DNA of 64,000 bases from an uncultured Thermoplasmatales archaeon (GCA_964347865.1 CAYGAC010000067.1:6592-70591); one strand, 5' to 3'. Shown: positions 1,409-60,808, counted from the stretch's first letter. Made by a program: numbers and translations. The notes: generated by a model not told the origin, from the sequence alone.

Positions 1409-2566
1409 TTAGTCCTCCACAACTCCATATAATTCTGATTCTCCTACTTTTCCATTTATTGCTCTCTTACATATTTTGGTAATATCTTTATATGTAACAT
1501 CTGTTCCTCCAATTCCGGCAATTATACCATGAACCTTGACACCTGATTGTCCATAAAGTGCAGATTTTACTTCTGAAAATAAAGCACCACCCAATCCTGG
1601 AGATATATTTCTGTCTATTACAATTAAATCAGCTTTTTTTCCCAATTGAATAAATTCCTTTGAGGGAGATGGTCGAAAGGTTCGAACTCGAGCAAGTCCA
1701 ATTTTTATTCCGTTTTTCTGCATTTCATCGATGGCAACCTTGCTTTCTGCACCAATAGCGCCCATGGACAATAGTATATATTCTGCATTATCACATTTAT
1801 ATTCTTCGATTAATTCACCATGGTAATAACCAGATTTTTTCTTCCATTCTTTTGCAATTTGTGGAATCAATTTTAATGCTTTATTATGAGCTTCTACCAT
1901 AGCTTTTCTAACGTTATAATATCCAACTGGTCCGATGATATTCCCAAATGTAATAGGATTCTTAACATCTAATTTCCATTGAGGTTGATATTTTCCTAGA
2001 AAATCGTCTACAATTTGTTGCTCAGGAATATCAGTCGGCATCGAAGTATGTGATAATATAAATGCGTTATAGCTTATCATAACAGGTAAGGAAATTCCTG
2101 TATATTCACCTAATTTAAAGGCTTGAATTACTGTATCAAAAATTTCTTGATTACTGCTACAATAAAATTGTATCCACCCTGTATCTCTTTGAGAGATAGA
2201 ATCATTTTCATCAGCCCAAATATTCCATCCAGGGCCAACAACTCTATTAATATTACACATAACAATAGGCAATCGTGCAAGAGCTGCCCAGTGGAGCATC
2301 TCATGCATGAGTAAAAGACCATGAGATGAGGTTCCCGTGAATACTCTTGAACCGGCAGCACTAGCTCCTATACAAGCACTCATAGCTGAATGTTCACTTT
2401 CTACACAAATGTATTCTCCGGTAAACTCTCCCTGTGCTTTTAAACTTGCAATTCCTTCAACTAGTGTGGTTTGAGGTGTAATTGGATAAGCTGCAACAAC
2501 ATCTGGTTTTACCATAACAGCTGCTTTTGCAGCTATATGATTTCCAGTATCAATCATAATTGTCAT
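1409..2566 (-). CDS. porA: 2-oxoacid:ferredoxin oxidoreductase alpha subunit
   Basis: 385 aa. It sits between the delta and beta genes with only a 3-nt gap to beta, and looks like the typical POR alpha domain. Confidence 0.8.
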   Translation of the reverse strand: MTIMIDTGNHIAAKAAVMVKPDVVAAYPITPQTTLVEGIASLKAQGEFTGEYICVESEHSAMSACIGASAAGSRVFTGTSSHGLLLMHEMLHWAALARLPIVMCNINRVVGPGWNIWADENDSISQRDTGWIQFYCSSNQEIFDTVIQAFKLGEYTGISLPVMISYNAFILSHTSMPTDIPEQQIVDDFLGKYQPQWKLDVKNPITFGNIIGPVGYYNVRKAMVEAHNKALKLIPQIAKEWKKKSGYYHGELIEEYKCDNAEYILLSMGAIGAESKVAIDEMQKNGIKIGLARVRTFRPSPSKEFIQLGKKADLIVIDRNISPGLGGALFSEVKSALYGQSGVKVHGIIAGIGGTDVTYKDITKICKRAINGKVGESELYGVVED

Positions 2567-2835
2567 TTTTTCTTTTCCTCCCGTTCCATTGAAATCGCTT
2601 TTACATTACATTCAGTGGCACATATTCCACAGCCTTTACAGTATTCGTAATCTATATTTATTGTTCCATCTTTTTTTCTTTTAATAGAGCTTTCTGGACA
2701 AAAAATCCAACACCTTAGACATTTTACACATTTTTTTTTGTCAAATACTGGTTTAAAAACCCTCCAACTACCAGTCTTTCCCATAGCTCCTTGCGTCGGA
2801 TAAGAAATACTTGTTGTTACTTTATATTTCTTCAA
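2563..2835 (-). CDS. porD: 2-oxoacid:ferredoxin oxidoreductase delta subunit (2x[4Fe-4S] ferredoxin)
   Basis: Two CxxCxxCxxxC(P) motifs are present (CVKCLRCWIFCPE and CKGCGICATECN). The gene overlaps the alpha start by 4 nt. Confidence 0.8.
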   Translation of the reverse strand: MKKYKVTTSISYPTQGAMGKTGSWRVFKPVFDKKKCVKCLRCWIFCPESSIKRKKDGTINIDYEYCKGCGICATECNVKAISMEREEKKK

Positions 2836-3446
2836 AAGTTCACCTCAGTCAATTTATAAGCATCGTTCGTAGCTTGTACATTTCTATCTCCAAGATCTCC
2901 TTTCCATCTATTTTTTATCGCTTTTTGAATGGATTTTAGTGTTACCCTATCTAACACTTTTGGAACGGAACCAAGTATAGGTGTGTTAACAACTGGAATT
3001 CCTCCAACTAAAATGTCATATTTTATTGCTATGCCGGTAGCATCAATTGATGCAACGTCATATTCCTTTGAAAAATCAAATTCATTTGGTTTTTTAGTTG
3101 TATTAATTAAAATTTTTCCATTTTTTTTCAATCCTTTTATAACATCAACAAGTCCCATGATACTTTCGTCAAGAACAATCACTATATCAGGAGAGTAAAT
3201 TTCACTTCGAAGATGTATTTCATCCTCCGATACACGGGCAAATGCTCGTACTGGAGCACCTCGTCTTTCTGCACCAAAAAATGGGAAGGCTTGGACTCCT
3301 TTATTTCCATCTATTAATGAAGCTTCAACAAGTATATTTGCTGCAGTAACGGCACCCTGACCGCCTCTTCCATGAAACACTATTTCTACTAAGGATTTCG
3401 ATGACACAAAATTACCGTCCCGGTTCCCGAAATGAACATTATACAT
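2832..3446 (-). CDS. porG: 2-oxoacid:ferredoxin oxidoreductase gamma subunit
   Basis: The gamma-type GRGGQG motif is present. This is the first gene of the operon and overlaps the delta start. Confidence 0.8.
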   Translation of the reverse strand: MYNVHFGNRDGNFVSSKSLVEIVFHGRGGQGAVTAANILVEASLIDGNKGVQAFPFFGAERRGAPVRAFARVSEDEIHLRSEIYSPDIVIVLDESIMGLVDVIKGLKKNGKILINTTKKPNEFDFSKEYDVASIDATGIAIKYDILVGGIPVVNTPILGSVPKVLDRVTLKSIQKAIKNRWKGDLGDRNVQATNDAYKLTEVNF

Positions 3447-43974: not shown

Positions 43975-44418
43975 ATGAATATGAAATCAACTGCGATTTT
44001 GGATTTGATGGTTAAAGACCATCATCGTATTCTAGAATATCTTAAAGATGTTGAGAATAATCTTGGACGAGATTTTGGGTTTATAAGCAATTCTTTTAAT
44101 ACTTTTCAATGGAATTTGGAAAAACATTTTTTTGTTGAGGAAAGGGCAATCTTTCTTACTTATATTCCTGAAGACGCTGCTCAGGAATATGATTTTTTTT
44201 CAGATCTTATGGATCAACACACAGAACTTTTAGAAAAAATTAATACATTGAGAAAAAAGCTACAGAGAAGAGAACCTTTTGATTTGAATGAAATGAAAAC
44301 GTTTTTAGTTAAACATAAAACTTTTGAGGAAAGGAACATCTATCCATTGCTAGATCAGAAACTCGACGAGAGTGAAAAGGATTTCATAATTGATCGTATA
44401 AGAGATATTAGAATATAA
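43975..44418 (+). CDS. hemerythrin HHE cation-binding domain protein
   Basis: The His/Glu pattern (DHHRILEYL … HFFVEER … H…E) is typical of hemerythrin-like domains. Confidence 0.6.
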   Translation: MNMKSTAILDLMVKDHHRILEYLKDVENNLGRDFGFISNSFNTFQWNLEKHFFVEERAIFLTYIPEDAAQEYDFFSDLMDQHTELLEKINTLRKKLQRREPFDLNEMKTFLVKHKTFEERNIYPLLDQKLDESEKDFIIDRIRDIRI

Positions 44419-44442: not shown

Positions 44443-45741
44443 TCAATGTACTGAACAAGAGATACATGGATCATAGGCCCGAATGAGCATCTCACATTTT
44501 AGAGTAATTTCATCTAAAGGTAAGGCCAATATAGTTTGAACAAAATCGTTAACATCTTTTTCAACATTGTAAGCATTTTGTGAAGTAGGTGGAACAATAT
44601 CTACACCTCTCACAATTCCATTATTATCAAGATCATAGCTATGATAAAGACTTCCACGAGGCGCCTCAGTAATAGCAGCACCAAAACCTGATTTACACAC
44701 TATATTTATTGATTCTTCCTTAAGAGATAATCGATTAATTATCTCAATTGACTCATCAATATTATGAACCAATTCTATTGCTCTTGCCAGATGCGACACA
44801 AATGGATTGAAATTGGGGAATTTAACACTGCTTCTTTTTGCTGCATCCTTTGCATCAGAAGAAAGCTGGCTGAAGTTAATATTAACTCTTGGAAGAGGCC
44901 CTACCATAAATGAATCTCGATTTTTCACATACGAAAGTAATGCCATTGAATAAGGCACCTGTTTCTCATGGATATAATCGCGATACTCCTCTTCATCAAT
45001 ATCTAATCCATCTGTTGATTTAAGCCGCCCGTGATTAATAGCATACTCCTTTGGATCTGAAATCGCTACATGTTCACACTTTCTCTCAAAATCTGGAACT
45101 TCTAATTCTGAGAAAAGATCAACAGTTTCAAAGGCGTCCTGTTTAAGTTCTAATAACCGTTTTCGTATAGTTTGTATATGATTTCTATTTGGCAATGCTG
45201 TAAAACCTCCAACGACTGCTGTAACAGGATGAACAGCTCTTCCACCGATAAGATCAGTAATATCATTACCTAATTTCTTAAGCTTCAGTCCTCTCTTCAC
45301 TAAATCCAAATGGTCCTTTGCCATAGCAATGCTGCTTTCATAACCCATAAGATCCGGGAGAGAAAGAAAATACATGCTAAGCACATTGCTTTGTATATGT
45401 GCACTTATTACAAGGAGTTTCCGTAAATCCTTGGTTTGCTGGCTAGGTTCTATTCCAAGTGCATTTTCAATAGCTTTAAGCGCCGTTATCTGGTGGGCTA
45501 CTGGGCAGATACCACAGATCCGAGAGGCAAGCTCCATTATTTCATCATACCTTCTGCCGATTAGGAAGAATTCAAAAAAGCGTGGTGGTTCATATATTCT
45601 AAACTGAAGGTCTTCTACTTTTCCATCCTTTGAAATGCTGATATTCAATGCTCCTCGCCCTTCCACACGAGCTATGTAGTCGACATCTATGGTTTTTCCA
45701 CTCTGATGTTTGTAATGAACTTCCACAGTTTTTTTTCTCAT
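44443..45741 (-). CDS. hydA: [NiFe]-hydrogenase large subunit (group 3b sulfhydrogenase alpha-like)
   Basis: N-terminal RICGICPVAH motif (L1) and C-terminal DPCISCSVH motif (L2). Last gene of a beta-gamma-delta-alpha operon. Confidence 0.85.
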   Translation of the reverse strand: MRKKTVEVHYKHQSGKTIDVDYIARVEGRGALNISISKDGKVEDLQFRIYEPPRFFEFFLIGRRYDEIMELASRICGICPVAHQITALKAIENALGIEPSQQTKDLRKLLVISAHIQSNVLSMYFLSLPDLMGYESSIAMAKDHLDLVKRGLKLKKLGNDITDLIGGRAVHPVTAVVGGFTALPNRNHIQTIRKRLLELKQDAFETVDLFSELEVPDFERKCEHVAISDPKEYAINHGRLKSTDGLDIDEEEYRDYIHEKQVPYSMALLSYVKNRDSFMVGPLPRVNINFSQLSSDAKDAAKRSSVKFPNFNPFVSHLARAIELVHNIDESIEIINRLSLKEESINIVCKSGFGAAITEAPRGSLYHSYDLDNNGIVRGVDIVPPTSQNAYNVEKDVNDFVQTILALPLDEITLKCEMLIRAYDPCISCSVH

Positions 45742-46520
45742 CAGTGTTCCGCCTCCTTCAGAAACTCTGGTGACATACCAGCATATTTTCTAAACTTCCG
45801 TTTAATATCCCTATCAGTCAGCCCCATATCTCTAAAAATACCAGCAAGAGCTGAGGCGTTCGGGTTGCTCATTGGCCCGAAACATCCCTCACAATCTCTA
45901 TTAAGAGAAGGGCATATCGCATTACATCCAGCGCTAGTAACTGGACCCATGCAAGCTCTTTTTTTACTGGTAATAAGGCAAATATTATCTCTGAACTTAC
46001 ATTCAACACAGACAGGGTGATGTCTTAGACGCGGCTGTATCTTTAGAAGAGCTGATTTCAAAAGCTCAACAATCATATCTCTATGGGGAGGGCACCCCTT
46101 TAAAATCTTGTCAACCTTAACATATTCTCCAATGCCTAAAACCTTGGTGGAATGAATTGTCGAAGTATCATGATAGACAAGGTTTTCTGCTTCCATCTGT
46201 GGTATCCAATTTCTAATAGATGGAATACAGCCACCAATGGCACAATCCCCAAAGGCTACAAGAAATTTTGTCTTCTTCCTGATTTGTTTAATCTCTTCAA
46301 TTTCCTCAGGAGTTGAAATTCCACCTTCAACAAAGCTGATATCCCATTCTTTCTTATCATTTTCTCGTTTAACCATAACCCAATAATTTATATCAAATAA
46401 TTCAAGCAAATCAAGGAAAATATCTTCCAAATGAAGGAACTCTAGCTGACAACCCGCGCACCCGGTAAATTTAAAAACTGCAATCCATGGTTTTTCATTC
46501 ATAATATATATCACTCTCAT
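45741..46520 (-). CDS. hydD: [NiFe]-hydrogenase small subunit (sulfhydrogenase delta-like)
   Basis: The GCAGC, GDCAIGGCIP and GCPP motifs are present, with additional Cys clusters. Confidence 0.8.
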   Translation of the reverse strand: MRVIYIMNEKPWIAVFKFTGCAGCQLEFLHLEDIFLDLLELFDINYWVMVKRENDKKEWDISFVEGGISTPEEIEEIKQIRKKTKFLVAFGDCAIGGCIPSIRNWIPQMEAENLVYHDTSTIHSTKVLGIGEYVKVDKILKGCPPHRDMIVELLKSALLKIQPRLRHHPVCVECKFRDNICLITSKKRACMGPVTSAGCNAICPSLNRDCEGCFGPMSNPNASALAGIFRDMGLTDRDIKRKFRKYAGMSPEFLKEAEH

Positions 46521-47350
46521 TATAAAGGATGGATAAAAGGTTTGATGTCATTGTAGCTGAAGACAGGGCCATCTTTACAAACAAATTTTAAACCAACTTG
46601 ACAGTGACCACACTTGCCTATTCCACATTTCATCCTCCTTTCAAGCGATAAATAAATTTGATTATCATTAAATCCTATTGTTTCCAAGCATTTAGCAGCA
46701 TATCGCATCATGATTTCAGGTCCACATACAAATGCTACAGAGTTTCGTGTTTTCGTAGTCATCCTCGGGAAGCAAGATGTAACAAGACCCAGCTGACATT
46801 CAAATTGTGATTCAACAGGAATAGTATCAACAGTAAGCTCAAGTCTACTACTTTTTATACCCCTCCATCTTTCAAATTCATCAGTGAAAATCATATCATC
46901 TGGTGTTCTAGCTCCATAAAGAATCTCTAAATGACCGAAATCTCTCCTATTAGCTCTAATATGATTGATAACACCTCTAAGGGGAGCAATTCCCATACCA
47001 CCTGCAACAAGTAAAACATCCTTACCTTTTATCTTAACAAGTGGCCATCCATTTCCATAGGGGCCACGCATTCCAATATAACTACCATCTTTTAATTGGA
47101 GAATTGCGCTAGTGACACTTCCAACGTTTCTAATAGTAGTGATAATAGAACCATTGTTACCAATGTCTGATAAAGAAATTGCAGATTCTCCTGCACCAAA
47201 TAAGCTAAGCATCATAAATTGGCCAGGTTTGGGTGAAAAATCTTTTTGCAGTTTTGAATCAGAAAACTCAAGGGTATAGGTATTCGTATTAGAGGTCTCA
47301 GGTTTAATTTTTTTTATTACTCCTATGTTTGGATAATACTCATTTATCAC
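46520..47350 (-). CDS. hydG: sulfhydrogenase gamma-like subunit (FAD/NAD(P)-binding oxidoreductase with C-terminal 2Fe-2S; PyrK-like)
   Basis: A ferredoxin-reductase-type fold is followed by the C-terminal CGIGKCGHCQVG motif. Confidence 0.7.
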   Translation of the reverse strand: MINEYYPNIGVIKKIKPETSNTNTYTLEFSDSKLQKDFSPKPGQFMMLSLFGAGESAISLSDIGNNGSIITTIRNVGSVTSAILQLKDGSYIGMRGPYGNGWPLVKIKGKDVLLVAGGMGIAPLRGVINHIRANRRDFGHLEILYGARTPDDMIFTDEFERWRGIKSSRLELTVDTIPVESQFECQLGLVTSCFPRMTTKTRNSVAFVCGPEIMMRYAAKCLETIGFNDNQIYLSLERRMKCGIGKCGHCQVGLKFVCKDGPVFSYNDIKPFIHPL

Positions 47351-47354
47351 ATTT

Positions 47355-48395
47355 TTAACCTCCTCTAATAGCTTTGGCTACTTCTGTAATATCGATCTTA
47401 GAGGGACATACACGGATGCATCGACCACACCCCACACAACTAGAATTTATACCCCCAGCTGCAGCGCCAAATTTGCACATCATCCAATGGCGTATCCTAT
47501 CTTTTCTATCTCTCCTAAAATTCCCATCAAGAGATACTTCACCATATTCAAGCAACTGACAGGAATCCCATTCCCGGTAACGAGCTCCACTTTTTAATGA
47601 CAAATCTGTTGTATCATTGACATCATAACAATAACAAGTAGGGCAGACGAAGGTACATGAGCCACATGATAAACATGGGAATGAGCCTGCAACTCCACCA
47701 CATTCTCCTAAATCCAGCCAAACTCCATGATTAGTGTTTTCCCTTGCAATTCTGGATAGCCATGAGATGTTCATAAATTTCTTCATTTTTTTCTCCATCA
47801 ATTTTAATCGTTTTTCCTTTTCTTTTATATCTTCTTTTTGTGCAGTTCTTAATTTTAATCCTTCAACTAAACTACTACCAGTTTTTGTCCCTATTTCCAA
47901 GAGATATTTTGTGCCTATATCAGTCAATAAAAGGTCATATCCTTCGTTTAGATAGGGACCTGTGTCCATTGAGCTGCAAAAAGAATGCCCACTTGGTTCA
48001 ATACAGTTAAGAGCAACTATAAAAGTATTTTTTCTCCGATTCTGATAATATGGATCGTTAAAATCCCCTGAAAAAAATTTATCTAATCTGTGGATAGCAT
48101 TCACATCACAAGGATGAATTCCAAAAAGGAGTATTTTTTCATCAAGTTTAATCTCATTAGTGGTGAATTTTCCATTTTTAACATCAAAAGAAAATAACGT
48201 TTCCTTCGGCGGATGGAAGAATTTCTTTGGTGGAAGAACAGTAGATATGTAATCAAGATGAAGGTCTTTTATAGATGTTATCTCATCGAAGGTTGAATCC
48301 GGACCAGGTTTTGTTGGGCCATATACTTTATATTTCTTTTGAAATCGTTCTAGGAGCTTATTCAGATTACTTTTATCTATTGTTAAAGCCTTCAT
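47355..48395 (-). CDS. hydB: sulfhydrogenase beta-like subunit (iron-sulfur protein)
   Basis: Several Cys clusters (CLSCGSCTFVCPTCYC; CVGCGRCIRVCP) match the HydB/AsrA-like family. Confidence 0.7.
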   Translation of the reverse strand: MKALTIDKSNLNKLLERFQKKYKVYGPTKPGPDSTFDEITSIKDLHLDYISTVLPPKKFFHPPKETLFSFDVKNGKFTTNEIKLDEKILLFGIHPCDVNAIHRLDKFFSGDFNDPYYQNRRKNTFIVALNCIEPSGHSFCSSMDTGPYLNEGYDLLLTDIGTKYLLEIGTKTGSSLVEGLKLRTAQKEDIKEKEKRLKLMEKKMKKFMNISWLSRIARENTNHGVWLDLGECGGVAGSFPCLSCGSCTFVCPTCYCYDVNDTTDLSLKSGARYREWDSCQLLEYGEVSLDGNFRRDRKDRIRHWMMCKFGAAAGGINSSCVGCGRCIRVCPSKIDITEVAKAIRGG

Positions 48396-48583: not shown

Positions 48584-50710
48584 ATGAATAATGGACATAA
48601 GAAACAGGATTCCCAAAATATGGATATGCATAAAAATCATGAAAAAATGGATGATATGAACCATTCTAAAATGAATCATGGGAAACATATGAAAATGGAG
48701 CATGAACATAAGCCCAAAGGAGAACATGAGCAGCATAAACATCCTGGACATCATGATCATACAGCTCATCATAAAATGATGATGGAAGATTTCAAACGAA
48801 GATTCATTATATCTTTAATTGTCACTATTCCAATACTGATATTATCTCCCTTGATTCAGGAATTTCTAGGTTTTGATTTTACTTTCACTGGGAGAAATTA
48901 TTTTTTATTTTTGCTTTCGTCTTTTGTCTTCTTCTACGGCGGTTGGCCTTTTCTAAAAGGTTTAGGATCTGAACTGAAAAGCAAGACACCAGGTATGATG
49001 ACACTAATTGCAGTTGCAATATCAGTTGCATATTTTTACAGTGCTGCAGTGGTTTTTGGCCTTGAGGGAAAGTTTTTCTTCTGGGAATTAGCCACACTAA
49101 TTGACATTATGCTGTTGGGCCACTGGATTGAGATGAGATCTGTTCTAGGAGCTTCTAATGCTCTTGAGAAATTAGCCCAGCTTATGCCTGATGAGGCCCA
49201 TCTTATCAAGGGAAATGACGTCGTAGATGTTAAACTAAGTGAAATATCAAAAGGGGATCATGTTTTAGTAAAGCCTGGTGAAAAAATCCCATCTGATGGG
49301 ATAATTATGAAGGGGAATAGTTATGTTAATGAGGCAATGCTTACCGGGGAATCAAAGCCTGTTGAAAAGAAAAAGGGAGATAAAGTAATTGGTGGAGCTA
49401 TCAATGGGGATGGTTCACTTGAGATTATGGTAGAGGGTACCGGTGAGGATTCCTATTTGTCAAAAGTCATAAACCTTGTAAGGGAAGCACAGGAAGCAAA
49501 ATCAAAAACCCAACGCTTAGCTGATAAGGCAGCTTTTTGGCTTACAATTATTGCATTAACTGCAGGTTTCACAACTCTTTTTACATGGACTTATTTTGGT
49601 CAGGATTTTGCTTTTTCTGTTGAACGGATGGCTACTGTTATGGTGATAACATGTCCGCATGCTCTTGGCCTGGCCATACCGTTGGTTGTCGCGGTTTCTA
49701 CAGCATTATCAGCAAGAAATGGTTTGCTTATCCGTGATAGGACAGCATTTGAAAATTCAAGGAAGATTACAACTATTGTTTTTGATAAAACAGGTACGCT
49801 TACTGAAGGAAATTTTGGAGTTAGTTCTGTTCAAACCGTTGATAATAAATACAATGAGAAGAAAATAATTCAACTCGCTGCAGCCGTAGAGAAGAATTCT
49901 GAGCATCCGATAGCTACAGGAATTCTTGAAAAAGCAAAAAACCTTGATGTTAAGGCTCCTGAAGTTTCAGATTTTAAAGCTATCAAGGGCAAAGGTGTTG
50001 AGGGAATTATTGAAGGGAAATCTGTTAAGGTGGTCAGTCCTGGTTATTTGAAAGAAAAAAATATTCAGATCCCTAACAATCAGAAGCTGAGTAGTTCAGA
50101 TACAGTGGTGTTTTTATTAGTCAATAATAGATTAGTTGGTATTATTAGTCTTTCTGATAAGATAAGAGAGGAATCTTTCAGTGCTATTGAGCGTTTAAAA
50201 AAAGCAGGGATAAAATGCTGGATGTTGACAGGAGATAATAAGAGAATTGCAAAAAAAGTTTCTGATGAGTTAAAACTTGATGGTTATTTCGCAGAGGTAT
50301 TACCTCATGAGAAACAGGAGAAGGTTAAGGAATTGCAGTCTAAAGATGAATTTGTTGCTATGACAGGTGATGGTGTAAATGATGCTCCTGCTTTGGCTCA
50401 AGCTGATGTTGGTATTGCTATTGGTTCTGGTACTGATGTTGCTGCTGAAACTGCAGATATAATTCTTGTGAATAGCAATCCTGCTGATGTCACATCTTTG
50501 ATTCTTTTCGGTAGAGCTACTTATAAGAAAATGGCTCAGAATCTTGTGTGGGCAACTGGTTATAATGTTGTTGCTATTCCCTTAGCTGCTGGTGTAATGT
50601 ACAGTCAGGGTATTCTTCTTTCTCCAGCGATGGGAGCTGTTTTAATGTCTTTGAGCACTGTAATTGTTGCAATAAATGCTAGATTGTTGAGAGTTGAGAA
50701 GGAGATTTAA
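48584..50710 (+). CDS. copB: P1B-type heavy-metal (copper) transporting ATPase, CopB-like (CPH motif, His-rich N-terminus)
   Basis: His-rich N-terminal tail (…[17 protein letters not shown]…). TM motif [10 protein letters not shown], phosphorylation site DKTGTLT and hinge GDGVNDAP. Confidence 0.85.
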
Positions 50711-50712
50711 TT

Positions 50713-51102
50713 ATGATTAGTTATAGGTTTACAAAAGAAGTAGATATGCCTTTTGAAGAAACAATTAAAATAGTAACTGAAAAGCTGAAAAAGGAAGGCT
50801 TTGGAATTCTAACAAGAATTGATGTTAAGGATAAATTCAAAGAGAAGCTTGATATCGATTTTAAGAACTATGTTATACTTGGTGCTTGTAATCCTCCTAG
50901 TGCCCATAAAGCTATTCTTACTGAGGAAAACATAGGCTTGATGCTTCCTTGTAATGTTATTGTTTATGAAAGTGGAGATAAGACAACGATATCTATTATT
51001 AAACCTACTGTTGCAATGAGTATGATTGATAATGAAGAGTTAAAGCAGATAGCTGAAGATATTGAAAAAAAACTTAAACATGTATTTGATGTTATAGAAT
51101 AG
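50713..51102 (+). CDS. DUF302 domain protein
   Basis: 129 aa. The GACNP motif and overall pattern match DUF302 proteins. The start lies 3 nt after the copB stop. Confidence 0.6.
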   Translation: MISYRFTKEVDMPFEETIKIVTEKLKKEGFGILTRIDVKDKFKEKLDIDFKNYVILGACNPPSAHKAILTEENIGLMLPCNVIVYESGDKTTISIIKPTVAMSMIDNEELKQIAEDIEKKLKHVFDVIE

Positions 51103-51114
51103 GAGGTAGCTGTT

Positions 51115-51528
51115 ATGGATAAAAAATTATCAGCAGTTTTTTTTGGAGGTTTTCCATTTATTGTTTTAAATGGTGGAGGTTTTACTCATATGATGGATGA
51201 CTGGGGTCATATGATGGATTGGTGGGGTATCCCATTTATGGGTTTCTGGTGGATTGGAGTGTGGATTATTCAGTTTATTATTGCTTTTCTTGTCTATAAG
51301 GATGCTGAGAAGAGAGATAATAATGGTTTGCTTTGGTTTGTACTTGTGGTTCTTCCTTGGATTGGTATTATCTTTTTGATAATTTATTTGATAATTCGGG
51401 AGGAAAAAACTGAGGCTGAGGAGACTATATCTGATGCCCTGAAGATCCTTGATGATCGGTATGCAAAAGGTGAGATGACAAGAAAGGAATATCTCCAAGC
51501 TAAAGAAGATATTGAGAAGAAGAAATAA
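51115..51528 (+). CDS. membrane protein with C-terminal SHOCT domain
   Basis: TM helices with Trp/His-rich loops. The C-terminal sequence LDDRYAKGEMTRKEYLQAKEDI matches the SHOCT consensus. Confidence 0.6.
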   Translation: MDKKLSAVFFGGFPFIVLNGGGFTHMMDDWGHMMDWWGIPFMGFWWIGVWIIQFIIAFLVYKDAEKRDNNGLLWFVLVVLPWIGIIFLIIYLIIREEKTEAEETISDALKILDDRYAKGEMTRKEYLQAKEDIEKKK

Positions 51529-51577
51529 ATTGAAAAAAAGAAAGATTTATATCAAAATGAATATGGGTAAAAATTAA

Positions 51578-52642
51578 ATGGCTATAGATCCAATTTGTGA
51601 AATGGAATGTGAAGAAAATAATTATTCTTATGAGTACGCAGGTAAGAAATATCATTTTTGTTCACAAGGTTGCTTGGATGCTTTTAAGCAATCTCCAGAT
51701 GAATATTTCAAGAAAAAGGAGCATCAGTTAATAATTATAGGTGGTGGTCCTGCTGGGCTTACTGCAGCGGTTTATTCCTCTGTATTTAAAATTCCAACAT
51801 TTTTAATATCTATGGATATTGGCGGTCAGGCGATAGACAGCATTAATATTAAAAATTATATGGGATTTGACTTCATATCTGGAAAAGATCTTACTAATAA
51901 ATTCAAGGAACAATTTTTACATGAACATTATCTAGACCATAAGATTGATGAAGTACTAAGTATAAATAAAAAGGGTGAATTATTTGAAGTAATTACCAAA
52001 AGTGGTGGTAAATATTCTGCTCAATCAATCATTATTGCTAGCGGCATGAAGCGGAGGAAATTGAATGTCCTTGGTGAGGATAGACTACAAAGGAAAGGAA
52101 TATTTTACAGCTCAGCACATGACATCACGTTTTGTAAAGGTTCAAATGTTGTAGTTGTAGGTGGTGGCAACTCAGGAGTGCAGACTGCCAATAATTTGAA
52201 AAATATTGGTTGCCATGTAACACTAGTCTCAAAAGGAAAACTAATAGCAGATAAACATGATATTGAAGAGCTTCAAGGATGTAAAGACGTTGAGATATTA
52301 GAGGGTTATAATGTTAGTGAAATATCTGGTGAGGATAAAGTAGAAGGAGTTTCTCTTATATCCCAAGATGGATCTTCTAAAATAGAAAAAAGGATTGTTG
52401 GTATATTTATCCAGATAGGGTTTTTGCCAAATACAGAGTTATGCGAGGATAAATTGAAATTGAATAAAAGGGGTGAGATTATAATCAAGCCAGATTGTTC
52501 TACTAATGTTAAAGGTATATTTGCCTGTGGTGATGTCACAGATGCATTTGGTAAAAGAATTATTGTAGCTGCTGGTGAAGGCGCAAAAGCTACTTTGAGT
52601 GCCAAACAGTATTTAATTGAAAGTGGGAGAGAATGTAGATGA
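51578..52642 (+). CDS. YHS/TRASH-domain fused to thioredoxin-reductase-like flavoprotein lacking the CxxC redox disulfide (FNR/YumC-like)
   Basis: N-terminal CEMECEENNYSYEYAGKKYHFCSQGCLDAF (YHS-like). FAD site IIGGGPAGLTAAVY. NAD(P) site VVVGGGNSG. C-terminal ACGD. TrxR has CATC where this protein has SSAH. Confidence 0.65.
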   Translation: MAIDPICEMECEENNYSYEYAGKKYHFCSQGCLDAFKQSPDEYFKKKEHQLIIIGGGPAGLTAAVYSSVFKIPTFLISMDIGGQAIDSINIKNYMGFDFISGKDLTNKFKEQFLHEHYLDHKIDEVLSINKKGELFEVITKSGGKYSAQSIIIASGMKRRKLNVLGEDRLQRKGIFYSSAHDITFCKGSNVVVVGGGNSGVQTANNLKNIGCHVTLVSKGKLIADKHDIEELQGCKDVEILEGYNVSEISGEDKVEGVSLISQDGSSKIEKRIVGIFIQIGFLPNTELCEDKLKLNKRGEIIIKPDCSTNVKGIFACGDVTDAFGKRIIVAAGEGAKATLSAKQYLIESGRECR

Positions 52643-52844
52643 ATGATGTAAAAGAGAAAGAATGTCCAATATGTAGTAAAAAGATAGGTCTGATGCTGCT
52701 ATTCATGAGTTCTGCAAACTTTGCGGTATGGGAATTCCTGAGCCTACAGACGCTCCTAAGATTCAGACAAAAGATGGGAAATATGATTATTTCTGTTGTG
52801 ATAGATGTTGTTCAATTTATAAGAAAAATATTGATAAATCTTGA
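52639..52844 (+). pseudogene. small Cys-rich metal-binding (zinc-ribbon plus YHS/TRASH-like) protein, apparent -1 frameshift near 52690
   Basis: Frame 1 reads MNDVKEKECPICSKKIG. The reading then continues in another frame as SDAAIHEFCKLCGMGIPEPTDAPKIQTKDGKYDYFCCDRCCSIYKKNIDKS*. The downstream frame is blocked upstream by TAA. The track ORF 52639-52857 reads through in the wrong frame. Confidence 0.4.
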
Positions 52845-52853
52845 GGTTAAATT

Positions 52854-54335
52854 ATGAAGCAGAGGTTTTTAATTGTTATTTTATTAGGTTTATTTTTAAT
52901 CGCTGGTTCTATACCAGCTGTTGCCCATGAGGATGAAGACAACACCGATTTACATGAGATAGATGGAGAAATTATTGAAGATGAATACCCAAATCATAGC
53001 ATCTTTGGTAATGGAGTATATGAATTATATTGGCGCATAGAAAATGATATCATATATATGGCCATGGTGGGTAAGACCACAGGTTGGGTTGCAATAGGAT
53101 TTGGTCCTATAACTTTACATAAGGGTGCTGATGTTGTAAGTGGATGGGTGGATGAAAATAAAACTGTCAGTGTTATTGATTGTTATTTCCCAGATATGTA
53201 CCCTCCACATCCACATGATACAGAGCAGAATGGTACTTATGACATTCTTTCCTATAATGGAACTGAACATGATAATAAAACAATTATAGAATTCTCTCGA
53301 AAGCTATCAACAGGTGACGATTTCGATACTGATATTCCTCTCAATAATAGCTTAGAGATATTCTGGTCTACAGGACCTACAGATAACTGGAGACAAAAAC
53401 ACGAGGAAGCAGGCTACACTACTGTAAATTTTACAGCAGGAGAACATTCTGAAAAAGTAGTAGATTGGATTGGACATGCAATTGTCAGCATCATTGGTCT
53501 TATTTTGGCAATTTCTATTCTAATTTCAGGTGCAAAATTAACAGGTAGAATCAAGGGTAAGAAAGGGGCAAATACTTATAAAATTCACAAGATAGTAAGT
53601 GTCTTATTTAGTGTTTTTATGATTGGAACATTTTTCTATGGATTATGGGTGACGTCAGGACATGGTTCGCCTATACTTTCATCTGTTCATGGTTGGCTGG
53701 GATTAATTATCTTTATTTTTGCAGTAATACAACTCATTCCTTGTTTGTTTGTTAAAAATCGAACTAGAATAAAATTTCCCCATATGATAATTGGTTATCC
53801 TTTAGCATTTTTGGTTGTTATTCAGGTTGCATGGGGTACTCATATAGCTGTATTGGGTGAAGTAAAATCTCTTGTACTTATTCATTCAATAACTGGAGGA
53901 ATTGCTGCTTTGGCCTTATTTTGGATAATTATAGAGATGAGACATCTTACTGAAAAAGGAATTAAGAGGTCTAAGAATGCGAGTTATATTTCAGCATTTT
54001 TCAATATTGTAGGATGCTGGATAATAGGTGGTTATAGTTATTTAACAGAATATGGGTCAAATGTTAAACCTATTATAAAATCAGGTGCTCAACCTTGGGC
54101 ACATCAGATTATAACCGAAACAAAAGAACATATCTTCATTTTCCTTCCAATACTATCAATCCTTCTTGCAATAACACTGTTCACCCTCGGTAAAGATGAT
54201 ACTTTATTGAAGGATCTTAAATCAAAACGTGCAGTAATTCTCCTTACAGCCTTTGTATTATTCTTTATTTTATTGATGTTTATAATGGGTGCAATTATTT
54301 CTTATGTAGGAAATCTTAGTGCAGGAGGTATTTAG
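52854..54335 (+). CDS. signal-peptide DOMON-like extracytoplasmic domain fused to multi-His cytochrome b561-like polytopic membrane domain
   Basis: Signal peptide, then a His/acidic region. The DOMON-like core is YELYWRIENDIIYMAMVGKTTGWVAIGFGP…ADVVSGWVDE. At least 8 TM helices follow, with His in consecutive helices (GHAIV, IHKIV, VHGWLG, PHMIIG…GTHIAV, IHSITGG). Confidence 0.6.
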   Translation: MKQRFLIVILLGLFLIAGSIPAVAHEDEDNTDLHEIDGEIIEDEYPNHSIFGNGVYELYWRIENDIIYMAMVGKTTGWVAIGFGPITLHKGADVVSGWVDENKTVSVIDCYFPDMYPPHPHDTEQNGTYDILSYNGTEHDNKTIIEFSRKLSTGDDFDTDIPLNNSLEIFWSTGPTDNWRQKHEEAGYTTVNFTAGEHSEKVVDWIGHAIVSIIGLILAISILISGAKLTGRIKGKKGANTYKIHKIVSVLFSVFMIGTFFYGLWVTSGHGSPILSSVHGWLGLIIFIFAVIQLIPCLFVKNRTRIKFPHMIIGYPLAFLVVIQVAWGTHIAVLGEVKSLVLIHSITGGIAALALFWIIIEMRHLTEKGIKRSKNASYISAFFNIVGCWIIGGYSYLTEYGSNVKPIIKSGAQPWAHQIITETKEHIFIFLPILSILLAITLFTLGKDDTLLKDLKSKRAVILLTAFVLFFILLMFIMGAIISYVGNLSAGGI

Positions 54336-54337
54336 AT

Positions 54338-54679
54338 ATGAAGCATAACCAAACCGAAAGAATTGCGGCATTCTATCTTGCAGCTATAATAACTGTTGTT
54401 GTCATCGGTTCCATGATAATTATACATGAAGAATCTACAGAGTTCAAGGATTTCCTAATCAACTTGACGGGTCACCATTGGATTACTAAAAGCATTTTTG
54501 CTATTGTTATATTCCTGATTCTATCGATAGTATTCTATGTAATGTTCAGATCAGAAAAGCTGAGGAAAGCATTGAAGGCTGATAATGTATGGTTATGGTC
54601 TGTTTTCACAGTTATTATTACAGTTATTTTTATACTTGGTAGCTTATTGATTTATATCCTCCATTTCTATGGTGGCTAA
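54338..54679 (+). CDS. small membrane protein (113 aa, 3 TM)
   Basis: Hydrophobic ORF starting 3 nt after the upstream stop. Confidence 0.45.
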   Translation: MKHNQTERIAAFYLAAIITVVVIGSMIIIHEESTEFKDFLINLTGHHWITKSIFAIVIFLILSIVFYVMFRSEKLRKALKADNVWLWSVFTVIITVIFILGSLLIYILHFYGG

Positions 54680-54754
54680 TAAGATTTTAAAAAAGCTATA
54701 TCTATAAGTAACTAATAATTGCAAATAATCAATCAAGTTCTTTCTTTAACACTT

Positions 54755-55030
54755 TTATTTCTTTTGTTTTTCTTTGAAAAACTTATGCATCTCTGATAAT
54801 ATTTTTTTCATTGTGTCGATTTGTTCATGGGCGATGGTAGTTCCTTCATGAAGTTCTTGGATAAAAGTGTGCATATCAGAAATCGCTTCTTTCATTGTCG
54901 TAATTTCTTCATGAGCTAGTATTGTTCTCTTGCGTAGTTCCCGAAAATGATAGATTAAGAATATTAGTACAATTGTTTCTATAACAATGATTGTTGCTTC
55001 TATAATTAAAATGAAATTTTCGTGAATCAT
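54755..55030 (-). CDS. N-terminally anchored protein with tandem His/Met/Glu repeat (candidate metal-binding)
   Basis: One TM helix, then two repeats: TILAHEEITTMKEAISDMHTFIQEL and TIAHEQIDTMKKILSEMHKFFKE. Confidence 0.45.
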   Translation of the reverse strand: MIHENFILIIEATIIVIETIVLIFLIYHFRELRKRTILAHEEITTMKEAISDMHTFIQELHEGTTIAHEQIDTMKKILSEMHKFFKEKQKK

Positions 55031-55112
55031 GGCTTTGAAGAATATCTTATTTATTTTAAAAAATTCTGTAGTCTAATTAGTTATTTAAAAAAAAATTCCA
55101 AAGTTACATATT

Positions 55113-55440
55113 CGCCACATAACATGTAGTTACATGGCGGTGGTCCAACAGGAGTAGTCAAAAAGCTTAAATTAACCCTGTTGTTACTCCTTATAAAAAC
55201 GGGCGGGTAACAAAGTGGTTACATTCCCCTTTTCGCTGAGAATATCGTCGAAAAAATCGTCGAAAATCTAAAAGTTTTTTCTAAACCCCTTCTTTTCTTT
55301 TTAATATTTGGCTATGATATAGTGGTTATGATGGATGTATTTATTCGCCGATTCTCATCGCTTTTCTCGTCGAAAATCTCCGCGTTATTTTCCATGGACT
55401 CCTTAAAAACCTTCTTTTTTTCTTTCTATTCTAAGAAACG
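55113..55440. repeat. composite repeated intergenic region, copy B (CGCCACATAACA + 81-bp insert + 79-nt core at 55207-55285; extra TCGTCGAAAATCT copy at 55368-55380; T-rich CTTCTTTTTCTTTT tails)
   Basis: Direct repeat of 39896-40003. It contains 55341-55360, which is the inverted-repeat partner of 61423-61442. Confidence 0.65.
55341..55360. repeat. inverted repeat arm 1 (atttattcgccgattctcatcg; the 22-bp perfect match spans 55339-55360) paired with 61423-61442
   Basis: The reverse complement of 61423-61444 is identical over 22 nt. Confidence 0.7.
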
Positions 55441-55513
55441 AATTTAGATATGAATTATTCTTATCACAGGTTATAATAAAATATTTAAATATGCACATAT
55501 ATACATATAAAAT

Positions 55514-55792
55514 ATGGTTAAAAACATGGTAAAATTCTTCAAGGCATTAGGAGACGAAACACGTTTTAAAATAGTCAGGTACCTTTTGAACCATGAATAT
55601 TGTGCATGTGATTTTACATCTATGACAAAGAAGGATCAAACTACTGTATCGAGGCATCTTAAGGTTTTGGTGGATGCAGGTGTTTTGAAATACAAAAAGA
55701 ACGGCAGGAATATAATCTACAGCATCAGGGATAAAAATGTAAAAAACGCACTATTGAAATTCGGAATAAAGTGGATAAAATCGTGCTGTTAA
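55514..55792 (+). CDS. ArsR/SmtB-family metalloregulator
   Basis: The HTH segment is ALGDETRFKIVRYLL…EYCACDFTSMTKKDQTTVSRHLKVL, with the CxCD-type metal site. 92 aa with C-terminal CC. Confidence 0.75.
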   Translation: MVKNMVKFFKALGDETRFKIVRYLLNHEYCACDFTSMTKKDQTTVSRHLKVLVDAGVLKYKKNGRNIIYSIRDKNVKNALLKFGIKWIKSCC

Positions 55793-56379
55793 AAGGTGAA
55801 ATGCAAAAAAGTGTTATACTAATATGTTTGATTGTTGTGATTTTAATTAGTGGTTGTATATCTGAAGAAAGGGGAATTGATATGGTAAACGAAATGAATA
55901 AATTAGTAATAGATTATCTATACTTAGACCTTTCATTGTGTAAAAGATGTCAAGCAACTGATATAGTGCTTGATGAGGCATTAAGTGAACTAAGAGAAGA
56001 GCTAAAGGATGTAAGGCAAATAACAGTCAATAAGATCAAGATATTAAGCGACAAGGAAGCGGAAAAATATGAATTTAAGAGTTCTCCAACCATAAGGATA
56101 AATGGTAAAGATATTGAAGAGATTATTACAGGTAAATTAGAGATAAAAGAAAATTATTGCAGCTCTTGTTCAGAAGTTTGTTGTGGGGAACCGAATTGCC
56201 GAACTTTTGAATACAATGGAACAATTAGTGATTCTATTCCCAAAGAAATGATAAAAGAAGCAATAATGATAGTTTTGGAAATAAATTCAAATGAAGAGCC
56301 TAAAGAGGGCGGGGCAGGTGGTTCACCGTGTTGCCCTCCAAGTAATCAAACATCAGGTTGTTGTGGTTCTGATACCTAA
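55771..56379 (+). CDS. lipoprotein with thioredoxin-like ArsD/DUF2703-type domain and C-terminal PCCPP…GCCG motifs
   Basis: Signal peptide with lipobox (LISGC). Central CKRCQ and SPTIRINGKDI segments resemble ArsD. CSSC and CCGEPNC follow, with C-terminal GGSPCCPPSNQTSGCCGS. The gene overlaps the arsR-like gene by 22 nt. Confidence 0.5.
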   Translation: MDKIVLLKGEMQKSVILICLIVVILISGCISEERGIDMVNEMNKLVIDYLYLDLSLCKRCQATDIVLDEALSELREELKDVRQITVNKIKILSDKEAEKYEFKSSPTIRINGKDIEEIITGKLEIKENYCSSCSEVCCGEPNCRTFEYNGTISDSIPKEMIKEAIMIVLEINSNEEPKEGGAGGSPCCPPSNQTSGCCGSDT

Positions 56380-56570: not shown

Positions 56571-57089
56571 TTGGTAAAGAAAAAAGGAAAAAAAGTTGCC
56601 GTAAAAACTAAAAAAGAGAAGAAACCTACCACTAAGATGACGGATGCTCCAACGGTATGGACCCCTTTTGACTTATTCGAAGATATTGACAGATACTTTT
56701 TTGAAGACCCATGGTTTAGACGCTCTGGATGGATGAGACCATGGACTGGAGCTTTAATTCCAGATGTGAAACATACAGCTGTGGATATGATTGATACCGG
56801 GAAAGAATATAAGGTGACTGCTGAAATGCCGGGAGTTGCGAAAAAGGATCTTGAAGTTTCAATAACACCTAATAATATAAGCATCTGTGGTGAAACCAAG
56901 ACTGAGACTAAAGAAGAAGAAAGGGGATACATTAGACGTGAAAGAAGTTATTCTACACTTTGTAGAAATATGAAATTTCCTGAAGAAGTAAATCCTGATA
57001 AAGCAGTAGCAACACTTAATGATGGTATTCTAGAAGTAAAGATTCCTAAAATTATACCAAGAAAAAGCAGAATTATACCAGTAAAATAA
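56571..57089 (+). CDS. Hsp20/alpha-crystallin small heat-shock protein (Lys-rich N-terminus; TTG start, or ATG at 56637)
   Basis: The alpha-crystallin domain is …DMIDTGKEYKVTAEMPGVAKKDLEVSI…GILEVKIPK. GGAGGT lies 8 nt upstream of TTG 56571. Confidence 0.7.
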   Translation: MVKKKGKKVAVKTKKEKKPTTKMTDAPTVWTPFDLFEDIDRYFFEDPWFRRSGWMRPWTGALIPDVKHTAVDMIDTGKEYKVTAEMPGVAKKDLEVSITPNNISICGETKTETKEEERGYIRRERSYSTLCRNMKFPEEVNPDKAVATLNDGILEVKIPKIIPRKSRIIPVK

Positions 57090-59419: not shown

Positions 59420-60808
59420 TTGAATATATGCAAAGATGATAATATGAAGGAATATGATGTAGTTATTATTGGGAGTGGCTCTGGTGGAATTATCGTTGAA
59501 AAAGCAATAGCTAAAAATATTAAAGTCGCATGGATAGAAAAAGGTTCTCTCGGAGGAACCTGTCTCAATGTCGGATGTATTCCTTCTAAAATGTTGATTT
59601 ATCCGGCAGACAAAATAATAGAATCACAAGAAGCGGAAAAACTTGGTTGTGAAATAAAATTCAATAATCTAAATTTTACTAAGATAATAAAAAGAATAAA
59701 ACAAACAATTACAGAGAATCAAAAACAAATAAAAACATGGATAGAAAGAGAAAAAAACATAGATTTTTATAACGGGGAAGCACATTTTATCGGAGATTAC
59801 ACACTAGAAGTAAAAAATAGAAAAATATATGGAAATAAAATATTTGTCGCCTCTGGTTCAAGACCACACATACCCTCTATAGCCTCAATAGATAAGAGTA
59901 ATATTTTAACAAATGAATCTGTTTTTGATATAAAAGAAAAACCAGAAAGTCTTATTATTATTATTGGTGGTGGTTATATTGCTGCGGAGTTTGGCCATTT
60001 TTTCACAACAATTGGATCTAAAGTTACTATTTTGCAGCGATGGGACAGGATTTTACCAAATGAAGAACCTGAAATATCTACAATATTAAAAAAACAAATG
60101 AATAAAAGAATGAGGGTTTTTATAAATACTGAGGCTATAGAGATAATACCATCTAAACCACTGTATACAGTAATTGGAAAAAACAGAATTACAGATGTGA
60201 AAAAAAAATTTAAAGCAGAAAAAATAATGATTGCAACAGGTAGAGAACCAAATGTTGACAGGCTTAGAGTTGAAAATACTGGAGTCAATGTAGATGAAAA
60301 GGGATATATTAAAGTAAATAATTATTTAGAAACTACTAAAAAAAATATTTGGGCATTTGGTGATGCTATTGGGAGATTCATGTTTAGACATGTAGCAAAT
60401 AAAGAAGCAGAGGTTGCATGGTATAATTCAACTTATAAACATAAAAAAATGATGAGCTATAATGCCATTCCTCATGCGGTTTTTACTTATCCACAAGTTG
60501 CCTCAGTTGGAATGACTGAAGCTGAAGCTAAGAAAAACCATGATATCATTGTTGGAAAAGCATATTATTCAGATATTGCAATGGGATGGGCTATGATGGA
60601 AAAAAATGGTTTTGCTAAAGCAATTGTCGAAAAAAATACAAATAAAATTCTAGGTTTTCATATCATTGGACCATATGCCTCTATTTTAATCCAAGAAATT
60701 GTGAATGTTATGGAATCTGATAAAAAGATTACATCTTTGATAAAAAGTATACATATTCACCCGGCTTTAAGTGAACTGATACCGGCAACACTAAGTAACC
60801 TTAAATGA
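59420..60808 (+). CDS. pyridine nucleotide-disulfide oxidoreductase, dihydrolipoyl dehydrogenase-like
   Basis: FAD site VVIIGSGSGG. The redox-active disulfide is GGTCLNVGCIPSK. The NAD site IIIGGGYIAAEFG and a C-terminal dimerisation domain with HPALSE are also present. Confidence 0.75.
   Translation: MNICKDDNMKEYDVVIIGSGSGGIIVEKAIAKNIKVAWIEKGSLGGTCLNVGCIPSKMLIYPADKIIESQEAEKLGCEIKFNNLNFTKIIKRIKQTITENQKQIKTWIEREKNIDFYNGEAHFIGDYTLEVKNRKIYGNKIFVASGSRPHIPSIASIDKSNILTNESVFDIKEKPESLIIIIGGGYIAAEFGHFFTTIGSKVTILQRWDRILPNEEPEISTILKKQMNKRMRVFINTEAIEIIPSKPLYTVIGKNRITDVKKKFKAEKIMIATGREPNVDRLRVENTGVNVDEKGYIKVNNYLETTKKNIWAFGDAIGRFMFRHVANKEAEVAWYNSTYKHKKMMSYNAIPHAVFTYPQVASVGMTEAEAKKNHDIIVGKAYYSDIAMGWAMMEKNGFAKAIVEKNTNKILGFHIIGPYASILIQEIVNVMESDKKITSLIKSIHIHPALSELIPATLSNLK

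Follow-up and report, generated by a model that had tools for sequence, protein, structure and literature searches.

We analysed a window of 64,000 nucleotides of DNA from an uncultured Thermoplasmatales archaeon of sediment (GCA_964347865.1, CAYGAC010000067.1:6592-70591) and concentrated on positions 48584-56379, where a gene for a CopB-type copper pump is followed by a gene that joins a secreted DOMON domain to a cytochrome b561-like membrane protein. We hold with moderate confidence that the latter protein forms a haem-based transmembrane electron conduit in a CopB-centred metal-stress locus, serving defence against copper or oxidative stress. A sequence-only reading of the same DNA had placed about ten genes in some 8 kb, and all ten open reading frames (ORFs) are present. 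Families were called on the window proteins with Pfam and NCBIfam. In the list below, backbone and accessory refer to the comparison with L008, a metagenome-assembled genome (MAG) of Thermoplasmatales with about 90% nucleotide identity to the window.

48584-50710, plus strand: CopB-type (P1B-3) copper P-type ATPase, 708 amino acids (aa), with a His/Met-rich N-terminus (TIGR01511 and motifs)
50713-51102, plus strand: DUF302 protein, 129 aa, accessory insertion not found in L008 (PF03625, 81 bits)
51115-51528, plus strand: SHOCT protein with two transmembrane (TM) helices, 137 aa, conserved backbone (PF09851, 28.7 bits)
51578-52642, plus strand: YHS domain (aa 3-45) joined to an AhpF/TrxR-like FAD/NAD(P)H flavoprotein without CxxC, accessory cassette
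52639-52844, plus strand: frameshifted Cys-rich mini-gene, about 68 aa if corrected (three-frame translation)
52854-54335, plus strand: DOMON domain, cytochrome b561-like core and His-rich 4-TM module, 493 aa
54338-54679, plus strand: three-TM partner of the C-terminal module, 113 aa, GHHW(I/V)xKS (synteny; without a Pfam family)
54755-55030, minus strand: membrane-anchored His/Met-repeat protein, 91 aa, convergent with the operon (ORF; without a family match)
55514-55792, plus strand: ArsR/SmtB metalloregulator, 92 aa, separate accessory unit (NF033788)
55771-56379, plus strand: DUF2703 thioredoxin-like Cys-rich protein, probably a lipoprotein, overlapping the end of arsR (PF10865, 100 bits)

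The gaps within the run 48584-54679 are 2, 12, 49, -4, 9 and 2 bp, consistent with a single operon. Co-transcribed units, as first proposed, fit these genes. The 91-aa gene lies on the minus strand, and ArsR-DUF2703 is a separate unit with a 483-bp spacer before arsR. Profile hidden Markov models placed CopB, DUF302, SHOCT, the YHS fusion, DOMON, ArsR and DUF2703 above their Pfam or NCBIfam cutoffs, in agreement with the names that these genes had been given from sequence.

The pump scored 626 bits against TIGR01511 (cutoff 397) and carries CPH357 in TM4, DKTGT401, YN(x)4P660 (YNVVAIP) in TM5 and MSLST688 in TM6. Of its first 75 aa, 16 are His and 11 are Met, and no HMA match was obtained in the Pfam scan. 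It has the P-type core and all P1B-3 signatures, and so is the CPH-motif, His-rich CopB that had been recognised before.

The 493-aa protein consists of a signal peptide (aa 1-24), a DOMON domain (about aa 35-195), a four-helix core (aa 202-334) and a C-terminal His-rich 4-TM module (aa 339-493) with H344, PWAH417 and KEH426. The DOMON domain reached 84 bits in Pfam (PF03351, cutoff 32.7), and the AlphaFold2 model (predicted local distance difference test score, pLDDT, 79.5) shows a beta-sandwich followed by eight TM helices, so that the domain is DOMON by both score and fold and the proposed layout of a secreted DOMON on an 8-TM module stands. The cytochrome label stood in part. Pfam cytochrome models scored below threshold (DUF4079 27.8 against 31.4; Cytochrom_B561 17.7 against 23), and the b561-like assignment is based instead on the fold, on profile matches and on the conserved His residues. 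Searched by profile against PDB sequences, the protein matched Dcytb (E=0.011) and Arabidopsis b561 best, with the window His aligned to haem-ligand His; Foldseek related the protein to b561 with a probability of 0.97-0.99. Among its relatives, PF03188 is a precomputed annotation on P0029, P0031 and P0043-46, and some relatives carry PF13301 or PF03188.

The core helices of the AlphaFold2 model span residues 202-229, 241-269, 278-299 and 307-334, and each of these four consecutive TM helices bears one conserved His: H208, H245, H279 and H310. In an alignment of 17 sequences H245, H279 and H310 are invariant and H208 is nearly so. With the DOMON domain outside the cell, the helix boundaries of the model would put H208 and H279 close to the outer face of the membrane, H245 and H310 close to the inner one. 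DOMON plus cytochrome b561 is the architecture of the eukaryotic CYBDOM ferric/cupric reductases, and in the plant CYBDOM reductase HYP1 the haem pairs are H211-H278 on the apical side and H245-H314 on the cytoplasmic side (PMC10784544). The paired TM His that had been suggested as haem ligands were thus found, on TM1-4 and alternating between the faces as in HYP1, and the likeness to the eukaryotic reductases, a DOMON domain followed by a b561-like core, is borne out as well. The HMMER alignment to Dcytb is one helix off from the topology-based pairing, and H344 on TM5 is a fifth equally spaced His, so H279 with H344 stays a possible outer haem pair. In the DOMON domain H183 and H119 are invariant and H89 aligns with Met in the distant homologues P0044-46; these residues would fit a His(Met)/His haem site with H89 and H183 as candidate ligands. 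A sugar-binding, CBM9-like DOMON was rated less likely, given the invariant H183 and the His or Met at position 89.

Relatives of the 493-aa protein come from MAGs of Thermoplasmatota and methanogens, and are built either as DOMON plus core (about 345 aa) or as core plus C-terminal domain (about 325 aa); the triple fusion occurs only in the window, L008 and L095.

The link between this protein and the pump was followed in a locus scan with the narrower alignments A2 and A7, A1 being too diverse. The synteny sample comprised 27 other loci in which the cytochrome core is fused to the C-terminal domain, with a neighbourhood of 5 kb. A P1B ATPase lies within this distance in 10 of the 27, mostly within about 1 kb and on the same strand (11 of 28 with the window included), and by our own estimate such a pump would be expected in roughly 1-2% of random 10-kb neighbourhoods. 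Because the observed share is far above this expectation, the CopB-cytochrome link is real; it is not obligatory. The CopB-linked loci belong to Thermoplasmatota, Methanothrix and Methanosarcinaceae, so that the synteny with metal genes, by which the first reading was to be checked, is kept for the cytochrome in several archaeal orders, and the gene orders differ: ATPase-SHOCT-cytochrome in the window, L004 and L008; cytochrome-partner-ATPase in L007; ATPase-cytochrome in Methanothrix (L013, L015 and L055). In Methanosarcinaceae L010 the ATPase is on the opposite strand, about 5 kb from the cytochrome gene. All eight ATPases checked are of the CPH type (the window, L004, L007, L008, L010, L013, L015 and L055); the check left out L105, where the ATPase match is weak (37% identity over a short segment), and L114, and L093 was too degraded to call. 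In L093 only CopB fragments (residues 376-704, in three frames, at 2222-3120) lie upstream of the cytochrome module, which reflects either a decayed pump or indel errors of long reads. L102, L117 and L123 are partial or more distant ATPase cases. Met-rich secreted proteins, SHOCT and ArsR also recur near module loci. Among the CopB-linked forms DOMON is confined to the window lineage, and the two loci examined that have DOMON but lack the C-terminal module (L001 and L094) are without copper or other metal genes nearby.

Nucleotide comparison showed which parts of the island belong together. By blastn only 49946-50711, 51111-51560 and 52909-55087 align between the window and L008. The DUF302 stretch (50712-51110) and the stretch 51561-52908, where the YHS-flavoprotein and the mini-ORF lie and the DOMON gene starts, are insertions relative to L008; homology ends at 55087, and ArsR-DUF2703 is absent from L008. 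The conserved backbone consists of CopB, SHOCT, the DOMON-cytochrome protein, the 113-aa partner and the convergent 91-aa repeat protein. DUF302, the YHS-flavoprotein with the mini-gene, and ArsR-DUF2703 are, in our reading, independently acquired accessory metal cassettes rather than obligate partners. Three cassettes that differ between near relatives, together with one frameshifted gene, might speak for a variable region in which unrelated metal and membrane genes have gathered with no functional coupling. We regard such a chance mosaic as highly improbable, since the order of the backbone is kept and the CopB-cytochrome linkage across orders exceeds the random estimate by far.

The C-terminal module proved to be a family of its own. 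In the genome scan residues of about 337-493 correspond to stand-alone proteins of ~155 aa in DPANN archaea, bacteria of the Candidate Phyla Radiation (CPR), some Gammaproteobacteria (including Lysobacterales), Thermoplasmata and Halogranum. The family is rare, with 301 representatives among 1.84 billion. A homologue of the 113-aa protein lies directly 3' of the module in most loci scanned and is fused to it in L040. Invariant motifs are a His on the first helix, GGxYY and PWAHxIxxExKEHxFxFLP in the module and, in the partner, GHHWxGKS; from the positive-inside rule and the helices of the model, all are predicted to lie on the extracytoplasmic face. Neither the module nor the partner matched a Pfam family at E<=10, and the search of PDB sequences with the module profile gave only spurious transporter matches. 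In about 80 loci with the C-terminal module, the neighbours within 5 kb include P1B ATPases (11), VKOR-like proteins (8), Trx-like CxxC proteins (7), CcdA/DsbD-like proteins (7), SHOCT (6), ArsR (6), cupredoxin (5) and DsbA (4).

These data bear on an alternative in which the 4-TM domain and its 113-aa partner are a CopD-like complex that binds or translocates copper, while the cytochrome and DOMON parts are secondary, lineage-specific add-ons. The pair occurs in about 70 loci without a detectable cytochrome gene, its invariant His, Glu and Trp lie on the predicted outer face, and P1B ATPases and cupredoxins are among its neighbours in the numbers just given; moreover, L001 and L094, which have DOMON and lack the C-terminal module, are without copper neighbours. 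We nevertheless consider a CopD-like complex quite improbable, as the pair resembles neither CopD nor any family of Pfam or PDB, a fold typical of transport could not be made out, and thiol-disulfide genes are the commonest neighbours after the ATPase.

In the conduit that we favour, the core most likely holds two b-haems, the outer one on H208 and H279 and the inner one on H245 and H310, and a third b-haem may sit in the secreted DOMON domain, which would then be of the haem-b type and is restricted to the window lineage. By predicted topology the His, Glu and Trp residues of the C-terminal module (H344, PWAH417 and ExKEH426) and the GHHW of the partner would cluster on the outer face. The module would carry electrons across the membrane to this extracytoplasmic site, as cytochromes b561 and CYBDOM proteins do, and would there reduce or oxidise copper, or a target damaged by copper or oxidants, near the point where CopB releases copper. 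If the b561 and CYBDOM enzymes are a guide, Cu(II) would be reduced to Cu(I); in the reverse direction the system would be an oxygen-independent cuprous oxidase. Copper is the most likely substrate because CPH-type pumps, SHOCT and other Met-rich proteins, cupredoxins and ArsR recur around the module. A bolder version, which we put forward only tentatively and judge unlikely as a whole, pairs CopB with an oxygen-independent, haem-driven copper redox enzyme in which electrons pass to or from a new His-ligated outer copper site formed by the 4-TM and 3-TM proteins, the stand-alone pair of CPR and DPANN being driven by thiols. If that were true, a CopB-linked haem system would do in anoxic habitats the job of multicopper oxidases or eukaryotic cupric reductases.

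Several observations weigh against a copper conduit. About 60% of the module loci have no CopB within 5 kb. A gene for Fe/Mn superoxide dismutase (SOD) lies 209-343 bp upstream of the module in L012, L099, L100 and L108 and 1.2 kb downstream in L014, L011 has ferritin and rubredoxin upstream, and L004 has ferritin and HSP20, so the common denominator may be oxidative stress rather than copper. In CPR and DPANN the stand-alone pair, with no cytochrome detected nearby, is often found beside VKOR, Trx, CcdA and DsbA. No Pfam cytochrome model reaches its threshold on the 493-aa protein, no cytoplasmic electron donor was identified for the module, and ascorbate, from which eukaryotic b561 takes its electrons, would not be expected in archaea. 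The regions upstream of copB and arsR share no k-mer or palindrome, so control of copB by ArsR is unsupported.

The SOD, ferritin and rubredoxin neighbours, and the HSP20 and hemerythrin genes that flank the window island, would be explained if the module were an oxidative-stress device of strict anaerobes that stands beside copB through a shared stress regulon. CybB of E. coli and MsrQ are di-haem membrane proteins with roles in superoxide scavenging and extracytoplasmic repair, respectively, and the module could be a CybB-like scavenger or an MsrQ-like supplier of repair electrons. We take this as a serious possibility, though an unlikely one: the pumps linked to the module are specifically of the CPH type and stand in several different gene orders, Met-rich proteins of the Cu(I) type, SHOCT and cupredoxin turn up near it repeatedly, and the His residues clustered on the outer face have more the look of a metal site. 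The SOD-linked loci belong to Methanotrichaceae/Methanoregulaceae (L012 and L014) and to three metagenome contigs, and represent a paralogous cytochrome-module operon in which CopB is replaced by SOD. In DPANN and CPR, the pair stands beside VKOR-like, Trx-like CxxC, CcdA/DsbD-like and DsbA genes at loci within L017-L087 (for example L019, L026, L029, L036 and L086), which suggests a link of the stand-alone pair to extracytoplasmic thiol redox.

The YHS-flavoprotein had been proposed as the electron partner of the cytochrome. Its YHS domain (PF04945, 51.1 bits against a cutoff of 30.3; pattern DPICEME...YHFCSQGC) is fused to a Pyr_redox_2 domain of 129 bits, and alignment to 4o5q shows that the CxxC of AhpF and TrxR (CPHC/CATC) is replaced by SSAH, so that the fusion and the replacement are both as read from the sequence. 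The protein scored 249 bits against TIGR01292 (cutoff 343) and 245 bits against AhpF (cutoff 503), and it lacks the redox CxxC that marks TrxR and AhpF. The closest solved structures are AhpF (2e-59), TrxR (7e-42) and a YumC-type FNR (3lzw, 7e-28). The label FNR/YumC-like was accordingly dropped, as the TrxR-like half of AhpF matches far better, and the protein is AhpF/TrxR-like instead. Its family has thousands of members, mostly in anaerobic bacteria and 55-64% identical to the window protein. CxxC is missing throughout (consensus YSSVQD), the glycine motifs for FAD and NAD(P)H are intact, and C289, C307, C317, H117 and H121 are invariant. C289, C307 and the HxxxH of H117 and H121 are absent from AhpF; these residues may form a new redox or metal site that replaces the lost CxxC. 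In MerA a metal-binding domain (NmerA) hands metal to the reductase core, which offers an analogy only for the YHS-flavoprotein.

All three bacterial contexts of this family that were examined are Cu/Ag efflux loci, with CusCBA-type pumps, P1B ATPases bearing YHS, HMA or HMBD domains, a P-II-like protein and sometimes a cupredoxin. A chain in which the flavoprotein passes NAD(P)H electrons to the cytochrome b/DOMON protein, giving a three-component Cu(II)/Cu(I) system beside CopB, would draw on this copper association, on the short gaps between the two genes in one putative operon, and on a flavoprotein that keeps its FAD/NAD(P)H motifs and carries a metal-binding YHS domain. Comparison argues against such a chain. 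The insertion with the flavoprotein and mini-ORF is absent from L008, and no other cytochrome-module locus scanned has a YHS-fused flavoprotein, the nearby matches being only TrxR-like without YHS or YHS-only. The three bacterial loci likewise gave no match to the C-terminal module or partner, and their gene tables list no cytochrome family. The flavoprotein-to-cytochrome path is therefore without comparative support, and we think it quite improbable.

The mini-gene behind the flavoprotein is a 72-aa ORF with a frameshift, as had been noticed: three-frame translation places it at the A5 run 52678-52682, where an extra A joins MNDVKEKECPICSKK to DRSDAAIHEFCKLCGMGI...YDYFCCDRCCSIYKKNIDKS with a stop at 52842-52844. 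The corrected protein of 68 aa has a CxxC...CxxC...FCCxxCC pattern reminiscent of TRASH/YHS and no Pfam match (E<=10). In two of the three bacterial loci (L090 and L091) the flavoprotein gene is closely followed by one for a small YHS protein, a parallel to the window mini-gene.

The remaining proteins are small. The DUF302 and SHOCT calls made before were sound, the latter just above its cutoff of 27. In its N-terminus the SHOCT protein has two Met/His motifs, HMMD(D)WG, which are encoded by a tandem 21-nt direct repeat at 51186-51227 and likely bind Cu(I). In L004, L008 and L095 a SHOCT homologue separates the CopB gene from that of the cytochrome. The anchored Met/His-repeat protein of the sequence-only reading exists, with two AHE(E/Q)I(T/D)TMK...MH repeats, on the strand opposite to the operon; it is kept at 86% identity in L008 and L095. 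The ArsR/SmtB call was well founded (83.4 bits against NF033788, cutoff 55), with YCACD and a C-terminal SCC (CC) as candidate metal motifs. For the last protein, the DUF2703 assignment (cutoff 23.6) and the CC motifs held (CKRC, CSSCSEVCC and PCC...GCC, besides a lipobox-like ISGC site) and the ArsD-like label found no support: no ArsD family was matched at E<=0.01 in Pfam or NCBIfam. Upstream of arsR, 55088-55513 has no counterpart in L008, and a duplicated unit, TCGTCGAAAATCT...AAACCCCTTCTTTTCTTTTT, occurs at 55257-55302 and 55367-55424, about 110-120 bp apart. Rfam gave no match in 54680-55530.

In a repeat scan, neither long repeats nor inverted repeats of note flanked the island. Divergent from copB lies a four-gene [NiFe]-hydrogenase cluster with sulfhydrogenase-like subunits (44443-48395 on the minus strand and 43975-44418 on the plus strand; families Fer4_22, NAD_binding_1/DHODB Fe-S, Oxidored_q6 and NiFeSe_Hases), adjoined by a hemerythrin-domain protein. 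Downstream of the island are an HSP20 gene (56571-57089), a family that likewise neighbours the module in L004, L008 and L095, and a class-I pyridine-nucleotide disulfide oxidoreductase with CxxxxC and a dimerisation domain (59420-60808).

Within the library searched, on prokaryotic and archaeal DOMON-b561 proteins, DUF4079, YHS-flavoproteins and DUF302 in relation to copper, there was no description of a prokaryotic DOMON-b561 protein in a copper locus, of the C-terminal family or of the YHS-flavoprotein family. What is new is the way in which the genes are combined, the return of this arrangement in anaerobic archaea, and the two-protein module rich in His; the individual folds are already known, and the pump is a regular CopB. 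What is understood of how cells detoxify exported copper comes mainly from aerobes, with their multicopper oxidases and their Cus and CopC/D systems, and the substrate valence of CopB-type pumps has been disputed. A haem conduit beside CopB in methanogens and Thermoplasmatota would be a clonable candidate for how anaerobes control the redox state of exported copper, and the pairing of CopB with a reductase-like membrane protein gives a testable lead to the handling of copper without oxygen. The CYBDOM architecture, studied as a eukaryotic invention, would have prokaryotic counterparts. The locus also exposes two uncharacterised families, the rare and widespread 4-TM and 3-TM pair and the very large family of YHS-fused, CxxC-less, AhpF-like flavoproteins.

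Among known systems the pump is closest to A. fulgidus-type CopB, with which it shares all signature motifs and the His-rich N-terminus and from which no difference was detected. The flavoprotein is closest to the AhpF C-terminal module and low-Mr TrxR; it aligns end to end over about 300 aa with AhpF and keeps the FAD/NAD(P)H glycine motifs, whereas its family has lost CxxC, has an N-terminal YHS domain in place of the double Trx fold of AhpF, and has gained the invariant C289, C307, H117 and H121. Cytochrome b561/Dcytb (PDB 4o6y and 5zle) and DUF4079 are the top profile or fold matches for TM1-4 and offer the same di-haem, bis-His pattern, but all matches are sub-threshold (E 0.004-0.2) and the canonical six-helix bundle is absent. 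Haem-b DOMON-type cytochrome domains (2ivf_C, the gamma subunit of ethylbenzene dehydrogenase, NxrC, and cellobiose/pyranose dehydrogenase) are also among the closest known systems. The nearest architecture is that of CYBDOM (Arabidopsis HYP1/CRR; animal SDR2/FRRS1), with an N-terminal extracytoplasmic DOMON directly before a b561-type core, near-equal His spacing (211/245/278/314 in HYP1, 208/245/279/310 in the window) and candidate DOMON ligands M90/H174 at positions like those of H89/H183. The window protein differs in a core of four helices followed by an unrelated His-rich 4-TM domain and a separate 3-TM subunit, in a first DOMON ligand that would be His rather than Met, in missing the Pfam b561 threshold, and in being encoded in an archaeal CopB operon where ascorbate is not expected as donor. 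What it has in common with a CYBDOM reductase is only the domain order, and transfer of electrons to Fe(III) or Cu(II) by the archaeal protein is suggested by that analogy.

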